Source of the DNA: an uncultured Gammaproteobacteria bacterium
GTDB taxonomy: Bacteria > Patescibacteriota > Microgenomatia > Levybacterales > UBA12049
NCBI GenBank assembly: GCA_964598355.1
Contig: CAZRBN010000002.1
Coordinates: 1 to 46,611 of the forward strand
Reading direction: 5' to 3'
DNA length: 46,611 bases
The notes beneath the pieces were generated by a model. That model had not been told where the DNA came from and did not search any database. It saw only the letters and a program-made list of their open reading frames with translations. The position numbers and the translations under genes are program-made. This document shows positions 1,521 through 42,112 of this stretch, piece after piece (position 1 is the stretch's first letter; the number at the start of each line of letters is the position of its first letter).

Positions 1521-1549
1521 AGTTTACCAAAGAAGAGATATCTTGTCAA
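1521..1549 (-). promoter_or_regulatory. sigma70-like promoter upstream of the GT2 gene
   Basis: On the minus strand: TTGACAAGATAT (-35 at 1549-1544), 17-nt spacer, TAAACT (1526-1521). The ~70-nt leader contains the hairpin CCGAGC-TAA-GCTCGG. Confidence 0.4.
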
Positions 1550-18504: not shown

Positions 18505-18553
18505 ATACCATATCTTACGCTACATCTGGGGAAGTATGTTGTCAAGATAGGGG

Positions 18554-21500: not shown

Positions 21501-24500
21501 AATGGAGAATTTCTTATGACTAGGGCATCGTTATTAGCATTTATATTGCCATAAATTGTTGCAGATCCCGAAGCATTGATACTCCCAACGACATCAAGAG
21601 CTACGGCGGGGTTGATGGTGCCTATTCCTACTTTTCCATTAACAGCCATGGCAATGCCCGAGGCAGCAGGGTCCAGGAAATATCTTGTATCCTGTAGGTC
21701 TTGGAACGAACTTACTCTCAGAATACCACTGTTAGTAAGTTGGAGTTGGGTACCTGCTGATGAAGAAGCAGTTAAGATATCTCCTGCACCAGGCTGTAAA
21801 ATACTGACTGTTGCATTGCCAAGACTTGTGGTATCAATATTAACGATATTATTTCCACTTGCGTCTTGGAACTGCATGGCATTGGCTGAATTGATAAGAG
21901 ATCTGGAAAGTAAATTACCGTTGTTATCAACTCGAAAAGCATCAGCAAGCACAGCAGAGGAGGTTGCACCAAAAGCTACGTTATCGAGTCTGGTTGAGAG
22001 CTGGTTGGTGACTCGCAAAAGAGAATCAACATTTAAGTTTGATTGTGTAAGACTTGCTCCAAATGGATTGTATGAGCTTGCTAAGAAGTCTTTAAAGTTG
22101 GTATCTTGCGTCTCAATCCAGGTATTACTTGATGCTCCAATAGCGATTGCTGAGCCATTCCCATAGGACTGCCCAACAGCAAGAGAAGTAACAAAGTTAT
22201 TAGAGCTGGTATTCCAGGAAGTCCCAACATCATCTTTAGTGGATACTCCTGATGAATAGATATCAGTTACTGTATCAGTATCCATACCAACAACAGAGAC
22301 GCCGCCTCCTTGTGTGCCAATATATATTTGCCCATTTTGCATATTTGCAGCAACAGCTGAGACGTTTGAGTTGCCATTAATAAGCTTCTGATTAGAATCA
22401 GCTCCTGTTACGATACTTCGAATAGTCTTGCTGCTGTGATTTTGCAAGGCTCTGTACCCAACTTGATATATATGGGCAATTTCACTTCCGGTCAATGTGT
22501 TTGCAGTGACAAATGGCTCATCAATTGATCCGTTGAAGAAGTCAGCTGGAGATCCAGAACTAAAGTATGCACCAATAGCAAAATCAAGATTGTTGTCGGG
22601 GATGGTTTGGCTGTGTGGTTGTGATGCTTCAAGTTGACCATCGATATATACCTTGGAATTGACGCCATCATACGTTGCAACCACGTGGTGCCACACGCCA
22701 TCATTGATTGACCGTGTTGAAGTTGCATCAGGAGATGCATTTATGGAAAATATAGCTTTGCCTATGGAGTTAATATACAAGAAATATTCTCCAGCAACTC
22801 CTGAGTTAAATTTAGAAATTATCATTTGATTAGTCGATCCACTTGTCTTGACCCATGCTCCAAGCGACCACGTCTTACCACCAGAAGCTAGTTTAGATGT
22901 CCCTCCACAATTTGCATTGGTACAAGTTAGATAACCTGTTGTGCCGTTAAAAGTAAGCGCAGTACCGCGAACACCAGAAGTAGAGTAAGTGACACCACCA
23001 CTCGAAGTAGCAGTAAGAGTGATACCTTTTACAGATGCATCGCTAACATTTCCTGACGTTTCATTAAATGACCACATGCCTCGGATATCTCCAACCATAT
23101 CTTCAGTAATAAAGTTGCTGTTGTAATATTTCACAGATCCATTCGCAATGTCTCCTTGTTTTTCCTGAATCACAGCTAATGCACCATTACTTCCACCTTC
23201 GCCAATGTAAATAGTATTTGATTTTCCATCAACAGTTGATGTCCCTTCAGTAACAAACATACTTGTGGCATTCATTACTGCAGCTGTTGTTGCGGTTGGA
23301 CCAGCAGTAAGGGTAAGAGAACTGAAGGTATTATTGTCAGTTGTCGTAGTGCCATAATTAGTACTTGCTTGATATGCATACACTTCATCATACGTTTGGT
23401 TATTCGTATTACTCGGTGTCAAATTTTGTATACCACGTTTTACCTTCAATGCATATGTGGCTGGCGTTGTTTGGTCTCCAACCAACGCATACAAGTCTCC
23501 CTGAGCAGTAATCCATAGAGATTTGACTTGTGCTGCAGGACCAAATTTACCAACGAGTTGTCCTTGCGTTTCATTAATAATGGATACTCCTCCAGCAGAA
23601 TTACCAGTATTAGCAGCAGCAAAATAGGTTTTACCATTGACAACCCGTACAGCAATATCGGTAACTGCGGTACTATTAATAAATGCATTTACAGAAGGAT
23701 TGAGTGCATAAGTGACAGGAGTATTTCGTGCACTTATATTAGAGGTTGTGTTATAGAAGCCAGTATTATTATACTTGTAAGCAGTATCATCTCTGAAATT
23801 CATCACGTAAAGACCCCCGGCAGATCCAGTTGTTCCAAAATAAATTTTGCCATTTATTGCAGTGACTGTATTTCCTGAAGAATTGGTTGTTGGGCCAACC
23901 ATTTGCTCAGTAGCTCCTGAGCCTTTATCAAATTCCATCCACAGAGAATTATCTTTTGCATCAAAGATATAGAGTGCGCCGGTTGTGCCTGAAGTAACAA
24001 CCAAGACTGCTTTCTTCGGGAAGGGCTGTGCTCCACAGCGGGTATTGGTGTTAATGACACAGCTGTCAACAGAAGTTCGGGATTCATTGTACCAGGATGC
24101 TGATTGGGCCCGCTCATCATTCGTCCATCGTCCACCATCTGCATCTTTTGATGTGTCATAGACAAACACTTTTTGGACGTTACTGAGAGCAAAAAGATTC
24201 TTATGGCCACCAATGGTTAAATCTTTGTCATTGAGTGTCATGTAGGTATGGTTGGTTGAGGCAATGTTAATGATGTTGTTGGTTGGGGGAAGGGTACCCG
24301 TGTTACTATTTACTTTAGGATCGTTAGGTGTCAGGGCAATTGTCCCAGCATTTATGCCTGAGCCAAAGACTTGGAATCTGGCTGATGCAGTAGAGCTTCC
24401 TCCAACAGCTAAGTCATTGGTAAGATTGGCAGGAGCGAGTACCCCTTGACTGGAAAGCTGCCAAAATCCAGCAAGGCCTCCGTTAACTGGCGTAACAATT

Positions 24501-27500
24501 TGTCTGACATAGAGCGTATCCCACTCTTTTCCTCCAGCGGTTGGGTCTGAGCCTAAGTTATACGTGTTATTTGCATTTGGAATAAGGCTATTTTTAATTG
24601 TGCCATCATTGGCAATGGTGAAGAGGGGTGTTCCCGATGCTGAAGCAGTAAAGACATCGCCAAGTCCTGAGACATTGGTTTGGTTGACTACCAGTTGAGC
24701 ATTGCCAAGATTGGTTGAAGCTCCAACACCGGTGTTACCGATAAATGCATTCAAGAAAAGATTGGTTGAGCTGCCACTATTTGTCGAAAAATCTATGTTA
24801 TGCCCTTGAGATCTCAAGAGTAAGTCACCAATGCTGGATCCAGTAATAACTCCTCCAGCACTGTTAGAGACGCCAATAAATGCTTGTGTTGTCCCATTTG
24901 TCTGGAAGCCTAAGACATTGTTTCCTGATGTTTTATTAAGGCTCAATGTTTCAAGTGGTGCTCCGTTATTAATCCCCACGTTCCCTCCGTTGAAGATGAT
25001 ATTTCCTGTTTGAGAGTCCCCAATCGTAATACCTGCATTATTTCGTGCAGCAATCAGGTTGGTGGCTGATGTTCCACCAAATACTATGTTACCACTGGTT
25101 GTTGCATTGCCGGTTAAGCCAAAGACTTGAAATTTAGCAGACGTGGTTGCGGTCCCACCAATAGCCACATCATTGGTCATATTAAATGGTGAGAGAACAC
25201 CACTGTTGAGCTGCCAGTACCCATCGTATCCTCCAGTTGCAGGCAGAAGAAGATTCTGAGCGTAGATAGTACCAAAGTTATTCGCCGAAGATCCAAGGTT
25301 GATACTGGTTGAGTTTGGAATAAGACTACCTGTGAAAAGACCAACTGGATTGATACCGTTCGTTACTGAAGATCCAAGCGTTATATTGCCTCGAATGAGA
25401 TTTGCACCGCTTGCGTTGCCAATATTAATACCGGTTATAGCTTGGCTTCCAATGTTGAGAGTTGCTACAGTTGTATTGAAAAGATTGACTGCTCCTTGTG
25501 TGGTAATAATATTGCTACCTCCCAAGGTAAGGTCTCCATTAGTTGCCAATGTTAATTGGTTGGTAAGTCCTGCATCTCCACCAACTGAAGTTTTAATGTT
25601 TAAGGCACTGCCGTTAAGAAGTGAAACATTGGTATTTGCCCCGCGGAAGGAAAGGCCTCCAGAGGAGGTTGCTGTGCCTGCTGTGTTGACTCCCGCTGTT
25701 GTTGAGAAAATTTGCCATGGAGTTGCAGAACCTGTTGCTGTTCCACCAATTGCCAAATCATAAAAGGTATTAATTGGGAAAATAAGATTATTAGTGAGAG
25801 ACCAAAATCCAGATGTTCCGCCAGTAATTGGTGAAACAATATTGTTGGCATAGACAGTATTGTAGTAGTGGATTGAAGAGCCAAGATTGACTGAGCCATT
25901 GCCTGTTGGAATTATATCGCTATTATATAATGCAGTGGATGTAATAGTGTTGGTGTTTGAAGTACCAAGAGTAATATTGCCATTGAGAGTTGTTGTTCCT
26001 GCTGAGTTGCCTACATTTACTGCTGTTGTTGCTCCACCTGCAAAATTTATCGTTGTTGCCGTGGTATTGAGTAGTGAAAATGTTGTTTGATTGGTTGTGA
26101 GTGAGGTTCCTTTAATTTGTAGAGGATTATTGATGCTAGTAGTGCCTGTGGTTGCACCTATACTAAGCGTACTTGCTGCTCCTGCGAAATTGACATTCGT
26201 TGCTCCGGTATTAATCAGATCAAATCCTCCTGAATTTGCATCAAGTCTTGCCCCATTAATGGTAACGCCTCCTGTTCCATTATGAGGAGTAAGAGCAATA
26301 TCCCCAGTTGTTGCTCCTCCAACTGTTAGATTGCTAAATCGTGTGGTCTGGAGTGTCCCGTCAGCAGCCATATATATTGACGTACCATTGAGTCCACTGG
26401 ATACAGAAGCGGTTGGTGTTCCAGATCCAGTCATATTTAAGACTGCAAACTTTGCAGAACTAGTTGCTGTTCCGCCTATAAAAACATCTAGAGTTGCATT
26501 TATAGGATAGAGGGCTCCAGTATTCAATACCCAGTAGGATCCATTGCCTCCTGTGCCACAAGTGCCCCAGCTTGGGCCACCTCCTGCATTCGACTTAAGA
26601 CATTCTCCTAAATTACCAGTGGTTGTTTGTGAAATAACGCCAGTTGTACTGCCATAGAGAACTCCGCCATCAGTTATATATTTGGCATCTTTAATTGTTC
26701 CATCATTTTGCACAGTGAATTTTGTACCTGCAGAGTTGGAAGCGGTTATCAGGTCACCTGCAGTATTCAAGTTAGCAACAACGAGCGCTGCATTACCTTG
26801 GGCATTTTTTTCTATATCCAGTCCAGAAAGAGAGAGAGGAGTAAGTGTTCCAATACCTTGCGTGCCTGCGATAAGAAGGGCGATGCCTGATGCAGCTGGA
26901 TCCAAGAAGTATGATGTATTATCAAGGTCTTGGAACGAGCGAACTTTTAGAATGCCTCCATTGCTGACAATAAATTGTGTGCCTGCAGAATTGGAAGCTG
27001 TGAGCAAATCACCTGCAGTATTGAGGTTGGCAAAAATAGCACCGGCATTTCCCAGAGAATCTTTTTCTACATCAAGTGCCGTTGCTGTAGCAGGACTTAC
27101 ACCAATACCCAGCCTGCCTGCAATAAAGGATGCGCCTGTGCCATTTACTGTCAGGTTTGAGGCAATGGTCAATGCTCCAGCATTGGTTATTTTATTTGAA
27201 GAGTTGAAGAATTGAATATCCCCTCCTGTGCTATTGGTCCCAAGAGTGATTGTGCCTGAGCCTGCCAGAATGGAAAGGGCATTATTACTGATTGTTGTAA
27301 CAGTAGGGGTTGTCCCAGTCAGTGCGACTGTTGCAGCTGCAAGGCTCACGGCCCCGGTACCATTATTTGGTGATAAGGTTATTCCTCCAGTGTTATTGCC
27401 ACCCAAAGTAAGTGGCTGGTTGTTGGTTGTTTGGATGTTCCCAGTAGTATTGAAAGTCAGGGTACCAGCAGTGGTAGCATTACCAGTGTTGCCAAAAATT

Positions 27501-30500
27501 TGGAATTTGGCAGAGCTTGTCGCAGTACCGCCAACTAACACATCATTGGTAATGTTGGTTGGGGAGAGAGCTCCGCTATTTAATTGCCAGTAGCCATCTA
27601 TTCCACCAGAGGAGGGGAGAATAATATTGGTTGCATAGAGAGTGCCAAAATTATTGGAAGGAGATCCGAGATTAATACTATTGCCTGTTGGGATAAGGGA
27701 TGCAGCAAATTGTCCGTTAGGGGTAATATTTCCTGTGATAGTCAGTGCACTGTTAACCGTTGTTGTCCCACCAGTAACACCCAGACCTAATGTGGTTGCA
27801 TTAGTCGTAAACACATTAAAGGTAGAGGCCGTTGTTTGGAGAGCACTGCCATTGATAGTGACTACACCTGAGCCATTGTTTGGAGATAAGGTAATTCCAC
27901 CAGTAGTTGTTCCACCCAGAGTAAGGGGAAGATTACTTGTTGTCTGGATTTGTGATCCACCAGTTGTAAATGTCAGGGTGCCAGTGCTAGTTGCATTGCC
28001 AGTGAGACCAAAGATTTGGAATTTTGCAGAAGAGGTAGAAGTTCCTCCAATAGCCACATCATCAGCAATACTCAGGGGGGACAAGACCCCCAGATTTCTT
28101 TGCCAATTTTGGCTGAGACTTTGACCGTTTACGACAACATTATTTGCATAGACGTTATTCCATTGCAGACTGCTCGTGCCTAAATCATAGGCATTGGTAA
28201 CAGAAGGAATTAGACTGGAATTGAACTTGCCGTTGATAGTGATGGTTCCAGTCCCATTGTTGGGGGAGAGTATAAGGCCACCGGTACTTGTCCCGCCAAG
28301 AGTAAGAGGAAGATTATTGGTTGTTTGAATACTCCCTGCGGTATTGAACGTCAGATTTCCGGCAGTAGTTGCATTACCGGTGTTAGCAAAGATTTGGAAT
28401 TTTGCTGTACTGGTAGCGGTGCCTCCAATAGCGAGATCATCGGTGATATTCGTAGGGGATAAGACTCCTAGATTCCTTTGCCAGACACCTGAGATGCTTC
28501 CTCCGGAAATAATATTTTTCACATACAAATTATTCCATTCCGAAGACGAAGCTCCGAGATCGTAGGTATCAGTGGTTACTGGGATAAGATTGGAGTTAAA
28601 CCTACCACTGATGGTAATAGCTCCAGTCCCATTGTTGGGAGAAAGGATGATTCCACCAGTACTTGCTCCACCAAGGGTAAGGGGTTGATTGTTGGTTGTT
28701 TGTATGTTGCCAGCGGTATTGAAAGTCAGATTCCCGGCAGTAGTTGCATTGCCAGAGAGACCAAAAATTTGGAACTTTGCTGTACTGGTAGCAGTACCTC
28801 CGATAGTGACATCGTCAGCGATATTGAAAGGAGCCAAAACACCCAAATTTCTTTGCCATGTAGCAACAATAGGTTGGCCATTTTGGAATATGTTATTTGC
28901 ATATAGATTATTCCATTGTAGGGTATTTGACCCTAAGTCATAGGTATTTGTTACTGATGGGATAAGATTTGAAGCAACTTTTCCATTGAGAGTGACGGTT
29001 CCAGTGCCATTGTTTGGAGAGAGGAGAATGCCACCAGTACTTGTTCCGCCCAGGGTAAGCGTTTGATTATTGGTTGTCTGAATATTCCCTGCAGTATTGA
29101 AGGTCAACGTCCCGGCAGTAGTTGCGTTTCCTGTAGTACCAAATATCTGGAATTTCGCTGTACTGGTAGCTGTTCCACCAATTGCCAAGTCGTCAGTAAT
29201 GTTAGTAGGAGAGGTGACTCCTAAGAATCTTTGCCAGAAGCCAGAGATAGTGCCTCCAGAAGTAATATTTTTTACATAGATATTATTCCATTCCAAAGAA
29301 TTTGAACCTAAATCATAGGTATCAGTTACAGCTGGGATGAGATTTGAGTTTACTTTGCCGTTGATAGTAACAGTGCCATTTCCACTTAATGGAGAAAGGA
29401 TAATATTCCCTGTGCTATTGCCGCCAAGTGTTAGTGCTTGGTTGTTGGTTGTCTGGATAATACCAGCACTGTTGAGCGTAATATTACCAGAGATAGAAGC
29501 AGTTGGTGTTCCTGCTGCAACATTAATGAACGCAAATTTTGCTGAAGACGTCCCTGTTCCTCCAAGTACTAAGTCTAGGGTAGTATTAACAGGGAAGAGA
29601 GTACCAAGATTCATGTTCCACCAGTTGCTACCACCACCAACAGTACAATTACCCCAGCTAGGAGCTCCAGACCCACCAGAAAAAAGACATTGTCCAGTGG
29701 TAGCAGAGTGAGCAAGGATCTGTAGCTTTGAAGCATCTGAGTACACAATGCCACCATTGTCTGCAGTAAGATTGTTGTTTGTTCCACCATTTCCAAGAGG
29801 AAGAGTCCCTGTTACTTCACTTGCTCCACCAGCTAAGTTAAGAGCAGATGAGGTAAGAACGCCAACATTAGTACTATGAACCAAGCCTGTTGTTAGTCCT
29901 GCAATAGTGACGTTACCTAAGCCATTGAGGGGGGAGAGGATGATGTTTCCAGTGGAAGGGCCTCCAAGAGTAAGCGCTTGATTTTTAGTTGTTTGGACAA
30001 CTCCATTGCTATTGAGAGTAAGATTCCCAGAGATAGAAGCAGTAGGAGTACCTGATCCAGGAGCATTGTTGATAAAAGCAAAATTAGCAGAAGCAGTTGA
30101 TGTTCCGCCAAAAAATACATCCAGCGTCGTGTTGATAGGATACAGTATGCCTTGAGTACTATTCAATGTCCAGAAATTAGAACCACTTCCACAAGCTGTC
30201 CATGTTGGTGCTCCAACACCATTTGAGGTAAGACATTGTCCTAAACTCCCAGTTCCTGTTTGAAGGAAGAGCCCTGTGCCGTTTGTATAGAGAATACCTC
30301 CATTGACAGTATAATTTGCAGAAGTAATGTCTCCTGCATTGCCTACAGTGAACTTGGTAGCTCCACTGGATGATGCGGTAATCAGTGGGCCAGAACCGTT
30401 TTGATTAACAATAACTGCTGAAGCAGCGCTCGTTGCCAGGACAGCAAATAAACTATCAACCTCAACAGCTCTAAGCCCAGGAGCAATATTGTTATTGAGT

Positions 30501-32347
30501 GTGCTATTTTGGAGTGGTTTCTGAAGGTCAATAACTCCCGACCCATCTGGTGCGAAAACAATATTACCATTTGTTCCTGGATTGGTATTGAATGCTAAGG
30601 TGTTGCCTGCAACAGTAAATTGACCAGTGGTTGATTGGAAGGTTGTGGATGCTCCGATAGTCAGGTTGCCTGAAGAGTTAAGAGCTAAGATAACATTATT
30701 TGTCCCGGCTCCTGACTGGGTGATAGGAGGAAGTCCTTGGAGTGTTTCAGCATTGGTTGCGTAGGCAACTGTAGCAAGCTGTTGGCGTGGAGTCAGCTCA
30801 GCTGTCTGGTTAACGGCAATTCCCAAGAACAAATTTTGATTGTTGGCAAAAAGAGACTGAGGAATTGTTGTGCCTTTACCGAGCAAAATTGAAAAAACGC
30901 CATTTTTGTCTGGGGTAACTCCATTTACCTCTTGCCACAACAGAGCCCCTCCTGTTGCAGTACTGTCCGAATAAATCGCAAATCGCAAGTTGGTACTTGC
31001 GGTGATTGGGGCATCTGAGGTATCGCTCAGCCGTCCTTGGAAAGATAAAATTCTGGGCGGTGAGCTAGCAGCCAGAGTCTGTGATTGCTCTTTTGGTTTG
31101 GCAATAAAGCTGTTATACATACCAAATCCAATTGTTGTACAAAAAACGATGAGTATTGCCCAATTGAAATAATGAGCGAGTGCTATATTATGATACCTTC
31201 TGTACCAATTAGGGCGTGTGTGCCTAGCGTGATGGACAAGTTTTCTATACCAAGGGAAATGTTCAATTGAGATAGCTAGAGGACTATAGAGCGCTTTTGA
31301 GATATTAGATACTTTGAACTTTAAAGCTGATGTATTATTGGAAATTGGAAATTGGAAATTGGAAATTCTCTTTGCCTTAGCAAAGAGTGGCTTGCCTTGT
31401 ATTTTCCAAAGCTGCTTATGAGCGACAATAACAACTTTGGTCAAAGGAGAGATAACAACGACCTCTATTCCCAGATCTATCCCTTTACCAATTTTTTGGA
31501 TAAGGCGAAGGGGAGGGAAGGAGGAGTAATGAGTAACCGTTAACTGTGAAGCGTTAAGGTTTTCTGGCTTATTTTCTTCTTGATGGTTGACTGTTAACGC
31601 TTCACCATCCTCGCGTGACAGATTGTGATGCGTATTGATGTCCTTTTCTGTCAGAGGCAGATCCTGAGTGCTATCGATGTTTGGCTTTATGTTTATATTG
31701 TCAGGGATTGCTATTTGTGCATTTATGAATCCTTGCTGGTTTGCCCAGGCAAAATATTTACGCAGGGATGACAGTTTCCTGTTGATTGATGATGCAGAGA
31801 AGGCCCCTTCTTCGTAGAGCCTTTGCTTATATTCTTCCAACAGTGAAGGATACAAGTAACTAAAAGCATTTTTCTCACCAACTCGTAGTGTCTCATTTGT
31901 GCCGGAAACTGTTTCTACCCATTGAAGAAATTGTTTCACATCGATGATGTAGTTTTTTATAGTTAGATTGCTTGCGTTATAGACATAAAGAAAGTCTTTA
32001 AATTCTTTTATATGCCATGGATCTTGATTGGTATGTCCGTTACTGTTAGCCATCGCATCAAAGGGAGATTGCGAAGCAGCTCCTTGAAGTTTTAGTGCGT
32101 GAAAAAACTTTCTGAGAGAGGAGAGGTGACGTTCAATTGATCGTACTGAATATGCTTTAGATTTATCTTCTACAAACATCTTAATCTGTTCTTGTGTTGT
32201 TTCATTTGGATTAAAAGATTTAGAGAGAGAAGATTCATACCAGGAAATAAACTGTCTGACGTCTGCAATATAATTTTTCACAGTCGCAGTTGAAGGGACT
32301 GGTTTTTGCGATAGTAAGAAATTTTTAAATTTTAGAATAAATTCCAT
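18554..32347 (-). CDS. giant (4,597 aa) single-pass membrane surface protein: 2x recombinase core-binding domain, TM, fibre repeats, blade-like region with LamG insert, Peptidase_G2-like segment
   Basis: Uninterrupted 13,794-nt ORF. Two CB/SAM-like domains at aa 20-95 and 126-207. TM at aa 395-415 (nt 31103-31165), preceded by a basic patch. Repeated ~126-aa modules. LamG-like domain at aa ~3092-3280 (nt 22505-23075). CIDYAEFY...VIGVVS...GRVPVKV segment at aa ~3940-4070 (nt 20135-20545). Confidence 0.9.
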   Translation of the reverse strand: MEFILKFKNFLLSQKPVPSTATVKNYIADVRQFISWYESSLSKSFNPNETTQEQIKMFVEDKSKAYSVRSIERHLSSLRKFFHALKLQGAASQSPFDAMANSNGHTNQDPWHIKEFKDFLYVYNASNLTIKNYIIDVKQFLQWVETVSGTNETLRVGEKNAFSYLYPSLLEEYKQRLYEEGAFSASSINRKLSSLRKYFAWANQQGFINAQIAIPDNINIKPNIDSTQDLPLTEKDINTHHNLSREDGEALTVNHQEENKPENLNASQLTVTHYSSFPPLRLIQKIGKGIDLGIEVVVISPLTKVVIVAHKQLWKIQGKPLFAKAKRISNFQFPISNNTSALKFKVSNISKALYSPLAISIEHFPWYRKLVHHARHTRPNWYRRYHNIALAHYFNWAILIVFCTTIGFGMYNSFIAKPKEQSQTLAASSPPRILSFQGRLSDTSDAPITASTNLRFAIYSDSTATGGALLWQEVNGVTPDKNGVFSILLGKGTTIPQSLFANNQNLFLGIAVNQTAELTPRQQLATVAYATNAETLQGLPPITQSGAGTNNVILALNSSGNLTIGASTTFQSTTGQFTVAGNTLAFNTNPGTNGNIVFAPDGSGVIDLQKPLQNSTLNNNIAPGLRAVEVDSLFAVLATSAASAVIVNQNGSGPLITASSSGATKFTVGNAGDITSANYTVNGGILYTNGTGLFLQTGTGSLGQCLTSNGVGAPTWTACGSGSNFWTLNSTQGILYPINTTLDVFFGGTSTASANFAFINNAPGSGTPTASISGNLTLNSNGVVQTTKNQALTLGGPSTGNIILSPLNGLGNVTIAGLTTGLVHSTNVGVLTSSALNLAGGASEVTGTLPLGNGGTNNNLTADNGGIVYSDASKLQILAHSATTGQCLFSGGSGAPSWGNCTVGGGSNWWNMNLGTLFPVNTTLDLVLGGTGTSSAKFAFINVAAGTPTASISGNITLNSAGIIQTTNNQALTLGGNSTGNIILSPLSGNGTVTINGKVNSNLIPAVTDTYDLGSNSLEWNNIYVKNITSGGTISGFWQRFLGVTSPTNITDDLAIGGTATSTAKFQIFGTTGNATTAGTLTFNTAGNIQTTNNQTLTLGGTSTGGILLSPNNGTGTVTLNGKVASNLIPSVTNTYDLGSNTLQWNNLYANNIFQNGQPIVATWQRNLGVLAPFNIADDVTIGGTATSTAKFQIFGLSGNATTAGNLTFNTAGNIQTTNNQPLTLGGASTGGIILSPNNGTGAITISGRFNSNLIPVTTDTYDLGASSSEWNNLYVKNIISGGSISGVWQRNLGVLSPTNITDDLAIGGTATSTAKFQIFANTGNATTAGNLTFNTAGSIQTTNNLPLTLGGTSTGGLILSPNNGTGTITINGKFNSSLIPSVTNAYDLGTSSLQWNNVYANNVVVNGQSLSQNWQRNLGVLSPLSIADDVAIGGTSTSSAKFQIFGLTGNATSTGTLTFTTGGSQIQTTSNLPLTLGGTTTGGITLSPNNGSGVVTINGSALQTTASTFNVFTTNATTLGLGVTGGTTTVNSALTITGNITPNGQFAASLIPTGNSINLGSPSNNFGTLYATNIILPSSGGIDGYWQLNSGALSPTNITNDVLVGGTATSSAKFQIFGNTGNATTAGTLTFNTTGNIQTTNNQPLTLGGNNTGGITLSPNNGTGAVSLAAATVALTGTTPTVTTISNNALSILAGSGTITLGTNSTGGDIQFFNSSNKITNAGALTIASNLTVNGTGASFIAGRLGIGVSPATATALDVEKDSLGNAGAIFANLNTAGDLLTASNSAGTQFIVSNGGILKVRSFQDLDNTSYFLDPAASGIALLIAGTQGIGTLTPLSLSGLDIEKNAQGNAALVVANLNTAGDLITASNSAGTKFTVQNDGTIKDAKYITDGGVLYGSTTGVISQTTTGNLGECLKSNAGGGPSWGTCGTGGNGSYWVLNTGALYPINATLDVFIGGTATSSAKFAVLNMTGSGTPTASVSSGLNGTSIYMAADGTLQTTRFSNLTVGGATTGDIALTPHNGTGGVTINGARLDANSGGFDLINTGATNVNFAGAASTLSIGATTGTTSINNPLQIKGTSLTTNQTTFSLLNTTATTINFAGGATTAVNVGNSAGTTTLNGNITLGTSNTNTITSTALYNSDIIPTGNGSVNLGSSIHYYNTVYANNIVSPITGGTSGFWSLTNNLIFPINTFYDLAIGGTATGSATPWQIFSTTAGVNTAGTATSSGGLSFRGANTNVSLLNGSALNIKTSVGGDAGLTNQLTLATNGDLTLGGSNIITTQGAVNLFNTTVATLNIGSQAITGINIGNASGANLIRGNITLGSSVTNGINPVGLFTGSLIPNSTSINLGSSANNFGTIYAQNLLLPATGGYDGYWQLNSGVLSPFNMTNDVAIGGTATTSAKFQVFGLTGNATTSGNIVFGGTSATNLIAARNNAGITIGDSQTGNIIFNGGNVGINNGAPLETLSLNKTSGNNVLGFQTNGTTQAFIGVSNSAGGVITGSSIGDLLLRSQGHNIDFSTNSGSSTNLFLNAFIGNTGVGASTNLGNAQLVVNQTNVSGLGDVFTASASGTPLFTIANDGTIKNSLIPNANNTYNLGSDPTAGGKEWDTLYVRQIVTPVNGGLAGFWQLSSQGVLAPANLTNDLAVGGSSTASARFQVFGSGINAGTIALTPNDPKVNSNTGTLPPTNNIINIASTNHTYMTLNDKDLTIGGHKNLFALSNVQKVFVYDTSKDADGGRWTNDERAQSASWYNESRTSVDSCVINTNTRCGAQPFPKKAVLVVTSGTTGALYIFDAKDNSLWMEFDKGSGATEQMVGPTTNSSGNTVTAINGKIYFGTTGSAGGLYVMNFRDDTAYKYNNTGFYNTTSNISARNTPVTYALNPSVNAFINSTAVTDIAVRVVNGKTYFAAANTGNSAGGVSIINETQGQLVGKFGPAAQVKSLWITAQGDLYALVGDQTTPATYALKVKRGIQNLTPSNTNNQTYDEVYAYQASTNYGTTTTDNNTFSSLTLTAGPTATTAAVMNATSMFVTEGTSTVDGKSNTIYIGEGGSNGALAVIQEKQGDIANGSVKYYNSNFITEDMVGDIRGMWSFNETSGNVSDASVKGITLTATSSGGVTYSTSGVRGTALTFNGTTGYLTCTNANCGGTSKLASGGKTWSLGAWVKTSGSTNQMIISKFNSGVAGEYFLYINSIGKAIFSINASPDATSTRSINDGVWHHVVATYDGVNSKVYIDGQLEASQPHSQTIPDNNLDFAIGAYFSSGSPADFFNGSIDEPFVTANTLTGSEIAHIYQVGYRALQNHSSKTIRSIVTGADSNQKLINGNSNVSAVAANMQNGQIYIGTQGGGVSVVGMDTDTVTDIYSSGVSTKDDVGTSWNTSSNNFVTSLAVGQSYGNGSAIAIGASSNTWIETQDTNFKDFLASSYNPFGASLTQSNLNVDSLLRVTNQLSTRLDNVAFGATSSAVLADAFRVDNNGNLLSRSLINSANAMQFQDASGNNIVNIDTTSLGNATVSILQPGAGDILTASSSAGTQLQLTNSGILRVSSFQDLQDTRYFLDPAASGIAMAVNGKVGIGTINPAVALDVVGSINASGSATIYGNINANNDALVIRNSPLNTASNEYVFSHRTNNQDLWLYEYDNASFWNPIKIVYANKSINLNPDGAGNVGIGTTAPAYPLDVVGNVRSSTGFIGTGDDNGGNGGQFRMVFGNYGAFFRNDGSNTYFLHTNSGSQYGVWNNDRQLILPNNSDNIYFSNGTTPGKVGIGTTGPNGKLDVRGSTVSTGAFESLIALGPSDGQTGEIYRSYNGSTTYLGMESYNVGNTVKEPLALQEFGGNVGIGTNNPAARLDLGGGGDFIHFGGGNANSDYTIGDYSESSVHYLGFKPTNNGNAFVIDNNAHTNPHPFWVNTSGNWTVLNGNFGTHGTKILTIGGGCTTVGTNACIDYAEFYNSTEIAAPADIITLDESSPSGKMVRLANSEYDSNVIGVVSTDPAIIIEEGRLSLGGNSADGPSVVPSLKPPVAMAGRVPVKVSTLNGSIHIGDRITSSNIKAFGMKVTKPGAVVGKAMQEFDPANGQNGEGLIDCPAGTPNGVICGKAFIFVNTSWYDPQVYLTSTGDMHLADASPSANFTVPHYYTLNDTLGGSITRMGTFLELAVANLRAGSIQTQQLFTNSLAIATANVTIAGQSLHDYILSVVQNAGLTSGQVAQSDSVKTNVISPLNGGNVALRLTNSGIEVAKDASSSAVASIDNNGNATFSGQLNSQNLAVNADATVSGTLHAHRIVADEITGLSAAVGTLSAQNITNVTNIYFATPSANTIGTNTITGSSSISSSNSGLLAPSLGYANIASYSGFLAYVPNLNANTAMFSQGLVSLGQTSLSDTTINGQLAIGTQLIIADNSVNVLGGTFQIQNLRQGNVSFEGGLIAIDTDGNLTVNGNAIFTKNLAANVITSLANDRDLTFKLGENTMATGSALATTTLSVQNASGSGIFNIDQLGNVIASGAASIAKLNFPAIQPALAVSNIEVVATGSAGTAAVKAHQVEVTIDNKLVTPKSLIYITPVGQTTYTPYLLRQVGGTSFTVGIPVQQFTDTTFNWLIVN
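27850..29360 (-). repeat. in-frame tandem array of four ~376-nt (125-126 aa) fibre modules in A-B-A-B order
   Basis: The landmark CCAAADATYTGGAA (antisense of AKFQIFG) recurs at 29139, 28761, 28386 and 28008, giving periods of 378/375/378 nt. More diverged copies of the same module extend over ~24.3-30.2 kb. Confidence 0.85.
31337..31367 (-). repeat. heptanucleotide microsatellite (ATTGGAA on + strand, AATTTCC on coding strand), 4.4 copies, inside the giant ORF
   Basis: Read directly: ATTGGAA x4 followed by ATT. It encodes RISNFQFPISN (aa 327-337), upstream of the TM helix. Confidence 0.9.
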
Positions 32348-32896
32348 AGGCAGTTAGTTGACGGATGTGAAATGTGAGTGAAAATATGTTTAGCTTCGAA
32401 ATTATACGGATTATACTCATTATCAACCCCACAATCACTACTACTATTAGATTAGAAAGTATATACTATCTTGTCAATGCCCTGGAGTAATAGCATCATG
32501 ATATATTTAGATATATTTTTATGCTCATGAAAAATATGTTTCACATCTCTGTGAAATATATGTTCTATAAATTAATTCGAAAATAAAGAATTAATTGAGG
32601 CTAAATTGATCGATTTACCATTAAAGGGGTATTATGAAGCAAAAGTGAAAAAACAGCCTTAATTCGACTTATTTTTTTGCAAAATTTTATTTTCACTTCT
32701 TTATTTTCACGCTTAAAGAGCTATTTAAATCGTTTTGGCAAAAAGACAATCTAAGTGATAGGTAATAATACTAGGGTATTTGGACTAGATTTATAACCTA
32801 ACTTTTATCTTGAGTTGTAAGCGCAGACTTTTGAGTGTTTTCACGCATATTTTTGTCTCTCTTGTACTCTTTTTGCTAACCTTCTAGAATAAGCAT

Positions 32897-34769: not shown

Positions 34770-35747
34770 TTATACTTGTTTTATCCGCTTTTTCACTCGT
34801 GTAAAAAGGAAAATGCCAATTACTATCATAAGAGTTATGCCGATAAGATACTGGAGTGGTAAGGCAAAAAAATAGATAGTTCGTTGATAAATAGGACCTT
34901 CAGGAGAAAGTGCTACAGTAAGTGTTGCCTTATATGGTCCAAAAAGAAACTGCTCATTCCAAACAGCTTTTCCAGGCATAAATTGACTTGTGTCAGTGAG
35001 AGTTCGGGATGAGTTAGCAAGGACATTTACCTGGAGAAGGTCAACTGTTCCAATGAGCTGGTCATAAAGATTACGGATGAAAATGTGACCTTGAGGTGAT
35101 ATATAGTAGGGGCTCAGATTTTGTACTGACACACTGAAGGGGATTGGTCCATTGGTGACATAAATAGGCGAATTGAATTTTTCTATAAATCCTCGAGCTG
35201 GGTCTTTCGGCCCGATGGAAAGCAATACGTTACTTGCTATGCCACCAGCTATAGATGACCCATTAGAGTTACCTTCGGGATTTTTGGAAAGAAAGACAAT
35301 AGAGAAGTAATAATCGGCTGGAGGTTCATCTTTGGGCAAGCCAATCTTAAGAGTAAGCTGTTTCTCTTCCTGAGGGCCAAGAGTGACTTCATTGACTGGA
35401 TTATCTCCATCGAGAACTTGGATTTTTTGAAAAATATTTTTATCTCTAAGTTGCAAGTCTTTTTCATCAACAAAATCTACATGTCCCAGGTCATCTTTAG
35501 ATCTGAATGGCCTGAGAGTGATAGAAAGGGTGGTGGGTTGATCCGAGCCATTTTTTATGCTGACTGGGTGGCGGATATCTGTTGGAGCAGTCGCATCAAT
35601 CTGGATAATAGGAGGCTGGATTCCGAGCTGAAGCTCAGAAGCGCTGGCGGTAGTGATATGCAGTAGACTATATGCAGTAAGCAATAAAGGGAAAAATAGT
35701 ACTAACAAACTTTTCCATATGTGCTTAATTCGTAATTGATTACTCAT
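34770..35747 (-). CDS. hypothetical cell-surface protein with signal peptide and C-terminal TM anchor (DUF916/DUF3324-like architecture)
   Basis: Signal peptide ending ITTASA. Two beta-rich domains, then a C-terminal TM (IGITLMIVIGIFLF) and a KKRIKQV tail. Its start lies 7 nt after the stop of the upstream gene. The family call is tentative. Confidence 0.75.
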   Translation of the reverse strand: MSNQLRIKHIWKSLLVLFFPLLLTAYSLLHITTASASELQLGIQPPIIQIDATAPTDIRHPVSIKNGSDQPTTLSITLRPFRSKDDLGHVDFVDEKDLQLRDKNIFQKIQVLDGDNPVNEVTLGPQEEKQLTLKIGLPKDEPPADYYFSIVFLSKNPEGNSNGSSIAGGIASNVLLSIGPKDPARGFIEKFNSPIYVTNGPIPFSVSVQNLSPYYISPQGHIFIRNLYDQLIGTVDLLQVNVLANSSRTLTDTSQFMPGKAVWNEQFLFGPYKATLTVALSPEGPIYQRTIYFFALPLQYLIGITLMIVIGIFLFTRVKKRIKQV

Positions 35748-35754
35748 ACTGCTT

Positions 35755-36528
35755 TTAAAAGGTTGGGATAGCGATATATGTTACGGTATTGTTGTAGGTT
35801 GCAGGCTGTTGGGAAGCTGAAACATTGACTTTGTAGGTTATTCCTCCAGAGCTTCCTGCTGTTTTGGTTGTTCCATTCATAATGATTTGTGCGCTTTTCC
35901 CAAGCTCGCTGTTAGCAAATGCTTTGTATGCATTGGTTGTTGAAAAATCAGCTACACAATCTGTACCAAGGATATTGTCGCATCGATACCCAAAGCCGTA
36001 GGTAAGCGTGTTAATCCAGACAGAGGCTGTTGTATCACTGCAGAGGCCTGTATCGCAGGTAGTATCTGGAATAATGGTGTTTGCTGTTTTGAGTGGGTGG
36101 TTTTCACGGCCAGTAATGGTGTAGGTAAAGGGTTGGCTTCCGCTGACTGTGAGCGTATTGGTACGACTGACAGGATTGGTTGGGTCAATTGTTCCAAAGT
36201 CAATTGCAGTTGGTGAGACAGTAAAGGTAAAGGTAGGCGTTCCACTTGAGGTAGAGGATATTGTTTGGTTGCAGAAGATCCCTCCATAGAATCCAGCACA
36301 GAGTTTGTAATTTGTCCCTGTATAGAGACCGGGAGCGAGTTCTCCTGAAGTGAAGGTGAGCTTGTTATTCCCTCCTGAGACTTGACCTGCTATAGAGTTA
36401 AAGTTGCCTAGGTTGATAATAAAGAAGTCATTAGCCATCCTAAACGCAAACGAAGTTTGCGTAATAAACAAATAAACAAATAAACAAATAGACAAATGTA
36501 AAAAGAAAGTAGGCAGAAATATTCTCAT
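35755..36528 (-). CDS. hypothetical secreted Thr/Gly/Asn-rich beta protein (possibly WxL-like)
   Basis: Signal peptide (HLSICLFVYLFITQTSFA) and no TM helix. The C-terminal ...ATYNNTVTYIAIPTF is loosely reminiscent of WxL-domain ends. Confidence 0.7.
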   Translation of the reverse strand: MRIFLPTFFLHLSICLFVYLFITQTSFAFRMANDFFIINLGNFNSIAGQVSGGNNKLTFTSGELAPGLYTGTNYKLCAGFYGGIFCNQTISSTSSGTPTFTFTVSPTAIDFGTIDPTNPVSRTNTLTVSGSQPFTYTITGRENHPLKTANTIIPDTTCDTGLCSDTTASVWINTLTYGFGYRCDNILGTDCVADFSTTNAYKAFANSELGKSAQIIMNGTTKTAGSSGGITYKVNVSASQQPATYNNTVTYIAIPTF

Positions 36529-36561
36529 AGAATGTGACTATTGGATTATTTGAATATTTGT

Positions 36562-37200
36562 TTATTTTTGAGAAGTTTCACTTCTCAAATCCTCAGTTTG
36601 TTCCAATATCTCATTGAGCTTTGCCACGTCTTCTTCCTTCAGATTCTTTTTCTCATTTTTAATAACATCTTCTACATCCTGAGAAATAGTATCTGCTGCT
36701 TCTTCGCTTCTCTCCTGAAGCTCTTCTATCTCTTCTTCTTGCTTTTCACGGTCTTTGTATTCCTTGCCAAAGAAATAGGGTAGAGGAGCAATCAGGATAA
36801 AAGATCCTAATTGGATATATGTACCCAAAGAACCACCGTTTTTAAGGACTTCAGGCACAAACATTGCAACAGTACAGAGTGCATACACAAAAACTGTTTC
36901 TGGTTCAAATATAAAAGTAATGCCAAAGCCTAAGAAGTAGAGAAGAAAGAAAAACCAACTTGTCATTTGTCCAGTTGCATAAATCAGAAGAAAGATAACA
37001 GTATTTAAGATAAAAATGTCTGGAATTCCACCAGCAAAGGCGTCTTTTTTCTGTCTGTGGCGTATAAAACTAAGTATAATGTAGATCAGAATGAGCCCCG
37101 CAAGGCCTTGAATGACATATGTATTCAAAAATGTTTGCTCCCATAGAAAAATGAATCCAAAAGAGCAAAGCAATACAAGCGCGTGGAGAATAAACTTCAT
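36562..37200 (-). CDS. hypothetical polytopic membrane protein with acidic coiled-coil tail
   Basis: About five hydrophobic helices, then EKQEEEIEELQERSEEAADTISQDVEDVIKNEKK. First gene of a three-gene minus-strand operon. Confidence 0.7.
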   Translation of the reverse strand: MKFILHALVLLCSFGFIFLWEQTFLNTYVIQGLAGLILIYIILSFIRHRQKKDAFAGGIPDIFILNTVIFLLIYATGQMTSWFFFLLYFLGFGITFIFEPETVFVYALCTVAMFVPEVLKNGGSLGTYIQLGSFILIAPLPYFFGKEYKDREKQEEEIEELQERSEEAADTISQDVEDVIKNEKKNLKEEDVAKLNEILEQTEDLRSETSQK

Positions 37201-40282: not shown

Positions 40283-40864
40283 GTGAAAGAAAAAACTTTG
40301 GAAGTGCTTAAAAAAATCCCTCCTTTTTACTACCTTCCAATCCTCATTTTTGTGGCTAGCATGATATCTTTAGTAACTGTTTTGATCCAGTTAACACAAA
40401 AAACACAGATGATAACAAATTAATACTGAATCAAGATCAACAAGAGCAGCTAACTAAAGGCTCCACAGAGATGTTGAGGGAGCAGTCCTTCACCAGGAGT
40501 CTATTTACTGCCAGCCGGATTACAGATAAAAGATACATTACTCTCTGCTGGAGGACTGAGCAGAGAATAATGCAGAGCAGTTATTTCCAAGCAATTAAAT
40601 TTTAGCTGTGAAGTTAGCAGACGGAGCAAAAGTGTATATTTCGTGTATTGCTGATGCGATACAAAATCAAACGTTTCTGCTGACAACTACAGGTCTGCTT
40701 AGTATTGATACAGCAACTACAGAAGAGTTGGATAATTTGCCCGGAATAGGGCAGGTGATGCCCAAAAAAATATAGCCTTTGGCAGTATAGAAAATTTGGT
40801 GACAAAGAAAGTTGTAAGCAATTCCGTCTACCAAAAGATAAAAGGAAAAGTGACTGTGTGTTAA
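40283..40864 (+). pseudogene. comEA: comEA-like (helix-hairpin-helix DNA receptor) pseudogene
   Basis: Conserved ComEA segments lie in at least two frames and are broken by stops. They are the N-terminal TM (IPPFYYLPILIFVASMISLVTVL, then TAA at 40421), VYLLPAGLQIKDTLLSAGGLSRE*, ILAVKLADGAKVYIS, LLSIDTATTEELDNLPGIGQVMPKKI* and FGSIENLVTKKVVSNSVYQKIKGKVTVC*. Confidence 0.7.
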
Positions 40865-40865
40865 C

Positions 40866-41921
40866 ATGAAGCGTCAAGCGTTAACCGTAAACAAATTTTT
40901 AAAACCGGTTAACGCTTTCTTTATGTCCAGACTTTTCTCTATTTTGTCTTAGGTCATTATTTTAGTAGTCGTAATTCGTCTTGTCCTTTTGTTCTCTTTT
41001 TCTCTAGAAATTTCTGATAATGAAAATATGCATTTCACATAAAACATTTTTGATGATCCAAAAGTAGTTAACAGTAACGAACAGTGAAAGTGAGTTATGG
41101 AACTTTCTGGTAATCAACGCCAATAACCATTCTCACGACGTTTACAATAACACTAACCTAGCTGATACGGCAGAAATTACTAGCAGAGTTAATTTTAAAT
41201 TGCTAAAAAACAAATAGCATGTAATAGCAATCTCTTCCCCGCAAATCAAAGCTAAAAAGCAAGCAGTTATGCCCATTTTTGCAAGAATGAGGCAAGGAGT
41301 TAACGCTTTTTGTGAAAATACGTTTTCACAACCATACAGCAGCCATGCTACTGGGGGTAAAGAATGCTCTTCAAGACGTGTAACTAGATCATTCCCCATC
41401 ACAGGTATAAGTCATGTTGTTACTGCATCTGTCATGAATGTGACACTTGTTACTGGTTTTTACTAAGTCTTTTTTGAAGACTTCTTAAAAGACAGCGGGT
41501 AATACTTTTTCGTATGGTAGGAATTGTTGGGTATATGATTTTGTCAGAACTTGATGTATCAATTCTTCGGACGGGGATAATGGGAGTATTGGTTTTTGGT
41601 GTAAAACTTTTTGGCAGACAGTATACAGTATTGTTAGTCTCTCTATTAATGACCGAAATTTTACTGTTGTATGAACCAGCACTTTTTGGCGATATTGGTT
41701 TTCAACTGTCAGCCCTAGCAACAGTGTGGATGGTTTTTCTCAAACCGCTGATTCCTTTGAAAGGATTTTTACTGACGATTTTGGGGCAACAGTTGCAGCA
41801 TAGAGCAACATTGCCGGTCATGCTGTCGACTTTTGAAAATTACGGACTCGTATTAATTTTAGTCAATACAGTGGTACTCTGGACTATTCCGACCATCACA
41901 GTTTTGGTGAATTTAGAATAA
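40866..41921 (+). pseudogene. comEC: comEC/rec2-like competence channel pseudogene (fragmented and shortened)
   Basis: Fragments match the ComEC competence domain but are separated by stops and frameshifts. They are ...FPITGISHVVTASVMNVTLVTGF (cf. TG.SHLLAISG.H) and LRTGIMGVLVFGVKLFGRQ...GDIGFQLSALATV (cf. RA.IM...GFQLSF.A). The total is far shorter than intact ComEC. Confidence 0.65.
40876..40917. repeat. perfect 12-bp inverted repeat AAGCGTTAACCG / CGGTTAACGCTT with 18-nt spacer
   Basis: Read directly: arms at 40876-40887 and 40906-40917. Member of the dispersed AAGCGTTAAC motif family. Confidence 0.9.
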
Positions 41922-42112
41922 CTCTAGGTTTTATTTTTCAATCATTTTGACAGGTGATTCTTTTCCTCACTTTTCCATTTCTTTGGTAATTTGAAAGAGT
42001 GGTTGAGTATTTTGTAGCGTTGCTTTTGTTTGCCAAGTGACACAGTGGCAGATATTTTTGCGTGTTGGATAGTATCTAATACTGATAAGTATTTTTGTTT
42101 TCTTAAAAGATA

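Follow-up and report, generated by a model that had tools for sequence, protein, structure and literature searches.

In the complexes that Cre and Xer form, the core-binding (CB) domain uses its helices B and D to read the major groove over each arm's inner part. CB-only regulators are a known kind: FliZ of E. coli and Salmonella is a CB-like, catalysis-free repressor that reads extended -10-like words via a helix equivalent to integrase helix 2/B, and it represses flhDC from a -10-like nonpromoter site just downstream of the promoter (Pesavento & Hengge 2012, PMC3367168). Membrane-integrated one-component regulators are likewise a known kind, and ToxR, CadC, and TcpP have one transmembrane (TM) helix, with an OmpR-type winged helix as DNA-binding fold and a small sensor as outer domain. 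Here, we describe a giant open reading frame (ORF) on the minus strand of contig CAZRBN010000002.1 (assembly GCA_964598355.1, placed by GTDB in the Levybacterales), whose 46,611 nucleotides we call the window. What is new in its product is a CB pair serving as the membrane-tethered head of a predicted surface fiber, and literature searches found no published description of this CB-headed fiber architecture.

The head shares with FliZ a CB-like domain without a catalytic domain and a candidate operator that is -10-like and lies just downstream of a promoter. The two are set side by side by description, not by sequence: FliZ is small and soluble, has one CB-like region, and serves a global regulon, whereas here a membrane anchor joins two CB domains to a fiber of 1.4-7 kaa and the candidate operator is a phased tandem array private to the gene. 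With ToxR, CadC, and TcpP, the protein shares a predicted layout in which a single chain has an N-terminal cytoplasmic DNA-binding module, one TM helix, and an external domain (CB-CB at 1-207, TM helix at 389-415, ectodomain beyond 415, in a predicted topology), but it has a CB fold and a giant structural fiber where they have the winged helix and the small sensor, and its regulatory role is a proposal. The CB domains of XerC, XerD, XerA, and lambda Int (3nrw, 2oxo, 5hxy) have the same fold, profile matches, and conserved helix-B/D motifs; the head differs in lacking a catalytic domain, in its tandem CBs, in having KNYxxDV for YRRDL, and in its membrane tether. The rest of the protein recalls phage T4 gp34-type tail fibers and tailspikes, with which it shares Gp34_trimer and long Gly/Thr/Asn-rich repeats, and relatives carry Peptidase_S74 (PF13884, precomputed Pfam column). 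Unlike phage fibers, it is encoded at a fixed chromosomal locus and has an N-terminal TM anchor and a cytoplasmic head.

Residues 1-207 of the giant ORF are confirmed as two tandem CB ("SAM-like") domains of the tyrosine-recombinase type, laid out as follows:

18554-32347, minus strand: giant ORF, 4,597 aa, uninterrupted, comprising the CB-CB head, a membrane anchor, and a fiber ectodomain
32063-32347, minus strand: CB1 (aa 1-95), helices 2-13, 20-41, 52-62, and 68-87, net charge +6, with motifs TVKNYIADVRQF in helix B and SIERHLSSLRKFF in helix D
32012-32062, minus strand: inter-CB linker (aa 96-112), with near-invariant D109 (DPW motif)
31727-32011, minus strand: CB2 (aa 113-207), better conserved than any other head segment, net charge +2, with motifs TIKNYIIDVKQF and SINRKLSSLRKY

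Against the head query (aa 1-440), Pfam returned Phage_int_SAM_1 (PF02899) at E=1.1e-18 and 67.7 bits, far above the cut-off of 22.3 and over two stretches (best at 113-206), together with Phage_int_SAM_4 (PF13495) at E=1.4e-12 (19-84) and Phage_int_SAM_5 at E=2.4e-5. These families were the sole Pfam matches in the head, an OmpR-type winged helix not being among them. An NCBIfam scan of the head returned Xer models only, the XerC/XerD equivalog models matching at ~72 bits (cut-offs ~330) over model positions ~7-97 alone. An AlphaFold2 model of the head, built from a 40-sequence family alignment, consists of two four-helix bundles at 2-87 and 113-204 (predicted local distance difference test mostly >90). 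Its top Foldseek matches in the PDB were all tyrosine-recombinase CB domains, with probabilities of 0.9-1.0: 3nrw (TM-score 0.69), lambda Int CB 2oxo (TM-score 0.73, root-mean-square deviation 2.2 Å), XerA 5hxy, and IntI 2a3v; the family sequence profile also retrieves 3nrw and XerA from the PDB. A sequence-only reading of the window had proposed two CB segments, at aa 20-95 and 126-207, and both profile and fold bear out their identity, but those borders omit helix A of each domain (2-13 and 113-122).

Two other structural matches were set aside. A guanylate kinase, the sole match of a single-sequence PDB search, was spurious. The best profile match in the PDB was chain 14 of 9i5v, a 401-aa "RaiA" in a P. 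gingivalis ribosome entry, whose N-terminal ~100 residues match the CB profile of the head family at E=6.5e-10 and which looks like an Xer-like protein fused to RaiA. Just 34 HPF-like residues of this chain are modeled on the ribosome (PMC12123416), so the entry says nothing about RNA binding by CB domains.

Helices B and D are the DNA-contacting helices of CB domains in Cre and Xer (PMC3367168; also textbook). On the same helices of the head family, near-invariant polar or basic residues are K24, N25, Y26, and D29 with R73, S76, R79, and K80 in CB1, and K131, N132, Y133, and D136 with N189, R190, K191, S193, S194, and R196 in CB2; R190, S193, and S194 are invariant in the 40-sequence alignment. 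CB1 and CB2 have the helix-B motif T[VI]KNY in common.

The sequence-only reading had also held that nothing resembling a recombinase catalytic domain follows the pair, and the searches agree. Phage_integrase (PF00589) had no match at E<=1 in the whole 4,597-aa protein and none in 20 further ORFs of the window, and among the recurring neighbor families of 80 related loci, part of which were Pfam scanned, none looks like a recombinase. The restriction of the XerC/XerD matches to positions ~7-97 likewise indicates that the catalytic half is absent. Without a catalytic domain, recombination is impossible and the protein is not a recombinase; the database label "site-specific integrase" for these proteins is wrong. 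A search with the CB pair alone found no true recombinase close to it, just same-family fragments, and no convincing stand-alone soluble CB-CB protein.

The same head recurs widely, as a survey of related giant ORFs shows. At least 76 proteins of 2,500-7,100 aa, which vary in ectodomain Pfam content (Laminin_G_3, Peptidase_S74, Kelch, Gp34_trimer, and others), carry the 440-aa head at 31-62% identity over 100% of its length, and dozens of contig-end fragments carry it too; source names are almost always "site-specific integrase" or "XerD." Species-representative genomes hold at least 231 relatives, whose informative titles are mostly Levybacteria/Levyibacteriota. The anchor module (query aa 270-440) occurs in at least 242 clusters at 50% identity among 1.84 billion representatives searched, again mostly Levybacteria. 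Essentially all full-length members have it starting at residue ~235-300, behind a CB pair, and some 240-290 aa almost always precede it, so the CB pair and the anchor form an obligate unit. In the family alignment, strong conservation spans the head, the anchor, and the first ectodomain residues: the head, not the fiber, is the conserved part of the protein. Logan contigs from four soil-metagenome runs, which belong to three studies, also contained the head region, with single-base differences only; one of the runs may be the window's own source sample. The matching runs were low-depth soil DNA contigs, and no RNA sequencing runs held the sequence.

Apparently "short" members are not genuine short proteins but contig-end fragments or split gene calls; in P0019 an overlapping 1,544-aa ORF follows, and in P0203 the contig start cuts the gene. 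In P0050 (L202:274-1100), promoter and array are normal, and the CB-CB ORF stops past the linker with uvrB-uvrA immediately behind it; this single contig is either a chimeric assembly or a deletion or natural truncation that leaves a soluble CB-CB protein.

For the locus comparison, 80 related loci were kept, which with the window gives 81 loci and 1.29 Mb; their head genes fall into a ~1,400-1,600-aa class and a giant class. Upstream of the head gene, the window carries these elements:

32449-32477, minus strand: core promoter TTGACA-N17-TAATCT, with the same geometry in relatives
32401-32425, minus strand: three-word array of 9-bp period, TGATAAT-ga-GTATAAT-cc-GTATAAT, the words being TGATAAT (32425-32419, degenerate), GTATAAT (32416-32410), and GTATAAT (32407-32401)
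32391-32400, minus strand: conserved box TTCGAAGCTA directly after the array, family consensus YTYGWRGCTR
32367-32384, minus strand: leader words TTTTCAC (32384-32378) and ATTTCAC (32373-32367)

The array is exclusive to head genes. On both strands of the 1.29 Mb, all 71 of 71 exact GTATAAT-N2-GTATAAT doublets lie upstream of a head gene and on its strand. When A is accepted beside G as the first letter, at least two words at the exact 9-bp period are present in 75 of the 81 loci (two words in 60 loci, three in 14), usually with a degenerate ATAAT copy ahead and YTYGWRGCTR behind. The geometry of TTGACA, 16-18 nt, and TAnnnT recurs in 69 of the 75 array-bearing loci, and in these 69 a gap of 10-59 nt (median, 34) separates the end of the -10 box from the first full word. 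The first word in the window starts 23 nt past the -10 box, which places the array in the initially transcribed region. A 43-nt leader runs from the TTCGAAGCTA box to the ATG; across loci, the array-to-gene leader spans 11 to 539 nt.

The support for the TTGACA-N17-TAATCT promoter comes from its conservation across loci; a consensus promoter scanner did not call the site, whose -10 box matches at 3/6 positions. TTGACA-N17-TAnnnT occurs at four sites in the window against 0.8 expected (1521-1549, minus strand; 16716-16744, plus strand; 18517-18545, minus strand; and 32449-32477, minus strand), three of them just upstream of genes. Their -10 boxes are TAAACT, TACTAT, TAGCGT, and TAATCT, and the combination of a strong -35 with a weak -10 suggests a local promoter style.

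The words contain TATAAT, which makes RNA polymerase the obvious other candidate reader. Among 81 TTGACA-N17-TAnnnT sites in the same loci, TATAAT serves as the -10 in only 2 and a G precedes the hexamer in 7; -10 positions 3-5 are nearly free, with C favored at position 5. The array is thus far more constrained than the true -10 boxes of these loci. The T at -7 is one of the two bases that sigma-70 needs most, and divergent families have C-ending array words (GTATAAC, ATATAAC), which lack it. Constraint, C-ending words, 9-bp phasing, and variable distance argue against polymerase as the only reader of the array. The inner Xer arm (…CATAA|T) presumably stands one base off GTATAAT.

The leader has features of its own. 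TTTTCAC occurs at 5.2/kb in array-to-ATG leaders (25 of 67 loci) against 0.2/kb elsewhere in the loci, an ~25-fold difference, and appears as a second conserved leader word of the head-gene family. Where the array lies farther from the ATG, the three cases whose ORF was read (L009:2495-3199, L017:5519-5980, and L018:286-753) have small ORFs, inserted in the leader between array and head gene, that look selfish by eye; the insert types seen by eye were GxxExxY/PD-(D/E)XK proteins and a 23S-rRNA-IVS-type four-helix-bundle protein.

A reverse search of metagenome contigs for GTATAATNNGTATAATNTNG gave 120 matches, 14 of which have a CB-head ORF within the following 1.6 kb; the rest (106 of 120) are mostly chance matches in unrelated organisms, and the scan cannot show that the array is unique within Candidate Phyla Radiation (CPR) genomes. 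The 14 include clearly different subfamilies (L102/L132, L133/L135, L178, and L190), and L147, missed by the motif filter and so outside the 14, also has a diverged CB head.

Some heads of distant relatives are divided between two ORFs. An apparent "half" CB domain in P0127, P0128, and P0129 reflects split genes (L203:1002-1560, L204:1001-1560, and L205:919-1600, on the array-oriented strand), and L133 and L135 are split at the same CB2 loop, between helices B and C. ORF1 (~160 aa) consists of CB1 and CB2 helices A-B and then stops; the giant ORF2 starts 4-105 nt later, in varying frames, with CB2 helices C-D, the anchor, and the fiber. ORF2 begins M[PS]NLP[KY]I[TS] in 4 of the 5, and P0129/L205 begins MNQIWSKINQQ. 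The array stands upstream of ORF1, the CB ORF. Because five independent sequences are split at one structural position, sequencing error is unlikely, and because the frames differ and no single recoding mechanism would rejoin the ORFs, we interpret them as two polypeptides. CB2 would then draw its DNA-contacting helices, B and D, from different chains, and the split pair may be a fragment-complementing DNA-binding head. A further locus, L207 (2209-3040), is split after the CB pair: its ORF1 of 262 aa holds CB-CB and the start of the hydrophobic helix that follows the pair, and past an in-frame stop, one codon on, ORF2 (1,215 aa) holds the juxtamembrane block, the TM helix, and the fiber. The array there is ATATAAC-cg-GTATAAT-tc-GTATAAC; L207 is a single Logan contig and may carry a nonsense mutation.

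Beyond CB2, the head continues through the following segments into the ectodomain:

31538-31726, minus strand: linker (aa 208-270), acidic (net -7), low-confidence, nonconserved
31388-31537, minus strand: conserved YSxFPPxRLxQK motif and long hydrophobic helix
31268-31387, minus strand: variable segment (aa 321-360), low-confidence, holding an (AATTTCC)4 heptanucleotide repeat at 31337-31367
31184-31267, minus strand: conserved juxtamembrane block (aa 361-388), basic (net +5), HxRxTRPxWYxxYH
31103-31183, minus strand: single TM helix (signal anchor, aa 389-415), then, outside, conserved LAA..PPRILSFQGRLTD
aa 3135-3291: Laminin_G_3 in the ectodomain (Pfam, E=1.9e-21)
aa 3691-3743: Gp34_trimer in the ectodomain (Pfam, E=9.6e-15)

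The sequence-only reading had the CB pair followed by a linker, a TM helix, and an ectodomain. That order holds, with the TM helix at 389-415, but its outline of the head was incomplete, as it mentioned neither the conserved helix at 278-316 nor the conserved juxtamembrane block. The 118 residues before the TM helix (aa 271-388) carry a net charge of +16, which by the positive-inside rule predicts an N-terminus inside and a fiber outside; the CB pair is therefore probably cytoplasmic and the giant protein type II (N-in). The helix at 278-316, with 39 residues, a conserved central proline, and basic flanks on both sides, would be a membrane-embedded (monotopic) hairpin or an interfacial helix. 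We rejected it as a second TM pass (290-308) on account of those flanks, the conserved proline, and charged residues, and because two passes would leave the lectin/tail-fiber-like ectodomain in the cytoplasm. Fiber and trimerization domains (Gp34_trimer and Laminin_G_3) are present, the trimer itself being a prediction. A frameshift in the (AATTTCC)4 repeat would yield a CB-CB protein without a TM helix; no length variants were seen in contigs of four low-depth soil runs, and contigs hide rare variants.

We tentatively prefer the reading in which the array is bound by the CB pair, which would serve as an operator-binding head, tethered to the membrane, at its own promoter-proximal region. The giant protein would be a membrane-anchored, phage-tail-fiber-like surface fiber, and its cytoplasmic head a domesticated Xer-type CB pair that still binds DNA. 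The likeliest target would be the gene's private array just downstream of its own promoter, where two or three [G/A]TATAA[T/C] words repeat with a 9-bp period, and the array-bound head may throttle or gate how its own gene, a very costly one, is transcribed. The recurrence of T[VI]KNY in helix B of both CB domains parallels the identical direct-repeat words. The head might act in cis, because its translation would take mere seconds, with transcription of the 13.8-kb gene and insertion of the product still under way. In a bolder form, which we consider somewhat unlikely, the fiber would be a transmembrane transcription factor wired to its own gene, binding the leader array in cis of the copy being transcribed. 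The CB pair would be first off the ribosome; binding in cis would keep the locus at the insertion site and gate reinitiation, and fiber synthesis, assembly, or load could feed back directly onto the promoter. In the split lineages, the DNA surface of CB2 would be complete only once the soluble head docks on the foot of the fiber, with helix B from the soluble ORF and helix D from the fiber.

Several points weigh against the array as ligand of the head. The evidence against polymerase identifies neither a protein reader in general nor the head as that reader. Since the word includes the consensus -10 hexamer, the reader of the array could be RNA polymerase or an unlinked regulator; the array is transcribed, so it could act at the RNA level; and array and head are co-inherited, so their co-occurrence cannot separate an array read by the head from one needed by the operon. 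A membrane-tethered head reaches DNA only when the locus is near the membrane, and the arginines of the Xer helix-B YRRDL are replaced here (KNYIADV).

Three alternatives take the domains as real and assign them another role. It is possible, if unlikely, that the CB fold was co-opted for protein binding as a cytoplasmic assembly or docking platform, either for the oligomerizing (probably trimeric) fiber or for a partner such as the acidic tail of the neighboring protein c4, with RNA polymerase or another regulator reading the array. CB domains also make protein-protein contacts in recombinase synapses (textbook), the split-CB2 variants show that two polypeptides can have the domain as their interface, c4 has a strongly acidic tail (pI of the whole protein, 4.66) against a basic head, and the c4-c2-c1 genes are kept on the same strand by the head gene in 42-67 of the 81 loci, although synteny inside one order may just reflect shared descent. 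The conserved surface residues are, however, basic or polar and lie on the DNA-contacting helices B and D, and such a role leaves unexplained a private, perfectly phased array that follows CB heads across diverged families. That array would equally be an unrelated promoter feature if the head were a nucleoid tether or other tether of low or no DNA specificity at the fiber base, holding the chromosome or incoming DNA. The charges of the CB domains (+6, +2), ultrasmall cells whose nucleoid is never far from the membrane, and a ComEC-like competence gene in the same conserved neighborhood are consistent with such a tether, which we consider improbable given that the near-invariant polar residues (KNY, NRKLSS) suggest a defined ligand, that array exclusivity goes unexplained, and that the window's ComEC-like gene itself reads as frameshifted.

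It is still less probable, in our estimate, that the array works through RNA polymerase or as RNA, by sigma-dependent promoter-proximal pausing, as a second -35-less promoter, or as a 5' untranslated region element, with the CB head unrelated to it or binding RNA. The words do contain TATAAT, 69 loci have them in the initially transcribed region, and certain divergent families have just 6-17 nt between the end of the last word and the ATG, which would suit a short-leader or leaderless transcript. The true -10 boxes of these loci are nonetheless degenerate (TAnnnT, with TATAAT in 2 of 81), C-ending words occur, and polymerase offers no rationale for the exact 9-bp phasing or the conserved G; promoter distances of 10-59 nt are ill suited to sigma-dependent pausing, and a leader of 11-539 nt makes a conserved RNA fold unlikely, no Rfam family having matched. 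As for an artefact, in which mis-assembly or stop loss fused a decayed integrase gene to a surface-protein gene, the database name "site-specific integrase" might suggest one, but it is effectively refuted: the profile matches are strong, the same architecture stands in hundreds of independent assemblies and the head region in contigs of four runs, conservation runs through head, anchor, and first ectodomain residues, and no catalytic remnant was found in frame or adjacent. The sequence-only reading had left three functions open for the pair, namely tethering of DNA to the envelope, surface-to-DNA signaling, and protein binding; the evidence favors the two that involve DNA, with the [G/A]TATAA[T/C] leader array as the candidate site.

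The locus is chromosomal and syntenic across the order (81 loci). Its gene order is leuS (opposite strand); c4, c2, and c1 (on the strand of the head gene); c8 (CarboxypepD_reg/Big_6, divergently oriented); the head gene; and a TPR protein, with extra c15-c1 pairs inserted between c1 and c8 in many relatives. The same-strand module upstream of the head gene reads as follows:

34770-37200, minus strand: conserved c4-c2-c1 module
36562-37200, minus strand: c4, a multi-TM protein with an acidic coiled-coil tail
35755-36528, minus strand: c2, secreted and beta-rich
34770-35747, minus strand: c1, WxL-interacting-protein-like, with a C-terminal TM helix

With these neighbors, the fiber gene sits by an envelope-complex operon and not among mobile-element genes. 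The c1 profile matches EfmWxLIP1 of E. faecium (PDB 9i25) at E=6.8e-5, and Pfam WxLIP_PGBD matches c1 in 9 of 14 members (best E=4.7e-6), all below the gathering score; c1 is probably related, if distantly, to WxL-interacting proteins, which belong to Gram-positive surface complexes. Like EfmWxLIP1 of the WxL/Csc clusters, it combines a signal peptide and beta domains with a TM helix at the C-terminus; the module differs from those clusters in the subthreshold c1 matches and in c2, where neither Pfam nor PDB profile searches detected a WxL domain; the C-terminal TVTYIAIPTF of c2 resembles a WxL motif by eye only. We know of no giant CB-headed protein in WxL clusters. At 40470-42013 on the plus strand of the window, the ComEC-like gene (~410 aa in relatives; tblastn pieces 41161-41490, 41487-41897, and 41906-42013) is broken across three frames, and a ~200-aa gene before it is broken across two (tblastn piece 40470-40855); both are either frameshifted pseudogenes or assembly errors.

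CPR bacteria (Patescibacteria) are thought to live attached to host cells and are not culturable alone, and to our knowledge almost nothing is known of their gene regulation and contact sensing. The CB-headed fiber family, present in most of the Levybacteria loci sampled, joins a host-contact-type fiber via one membrane helix to a recombinase-derived module with a private candidate operator, and its wrong label as a site-specific integrase inflates mobile-element counts in CPR genomes. If the head binds the array, it would represent a new class of DNA-binding domain for membrane-tethered regulators and would provide a directly testable surface-to-gene route in CPR bacteria.

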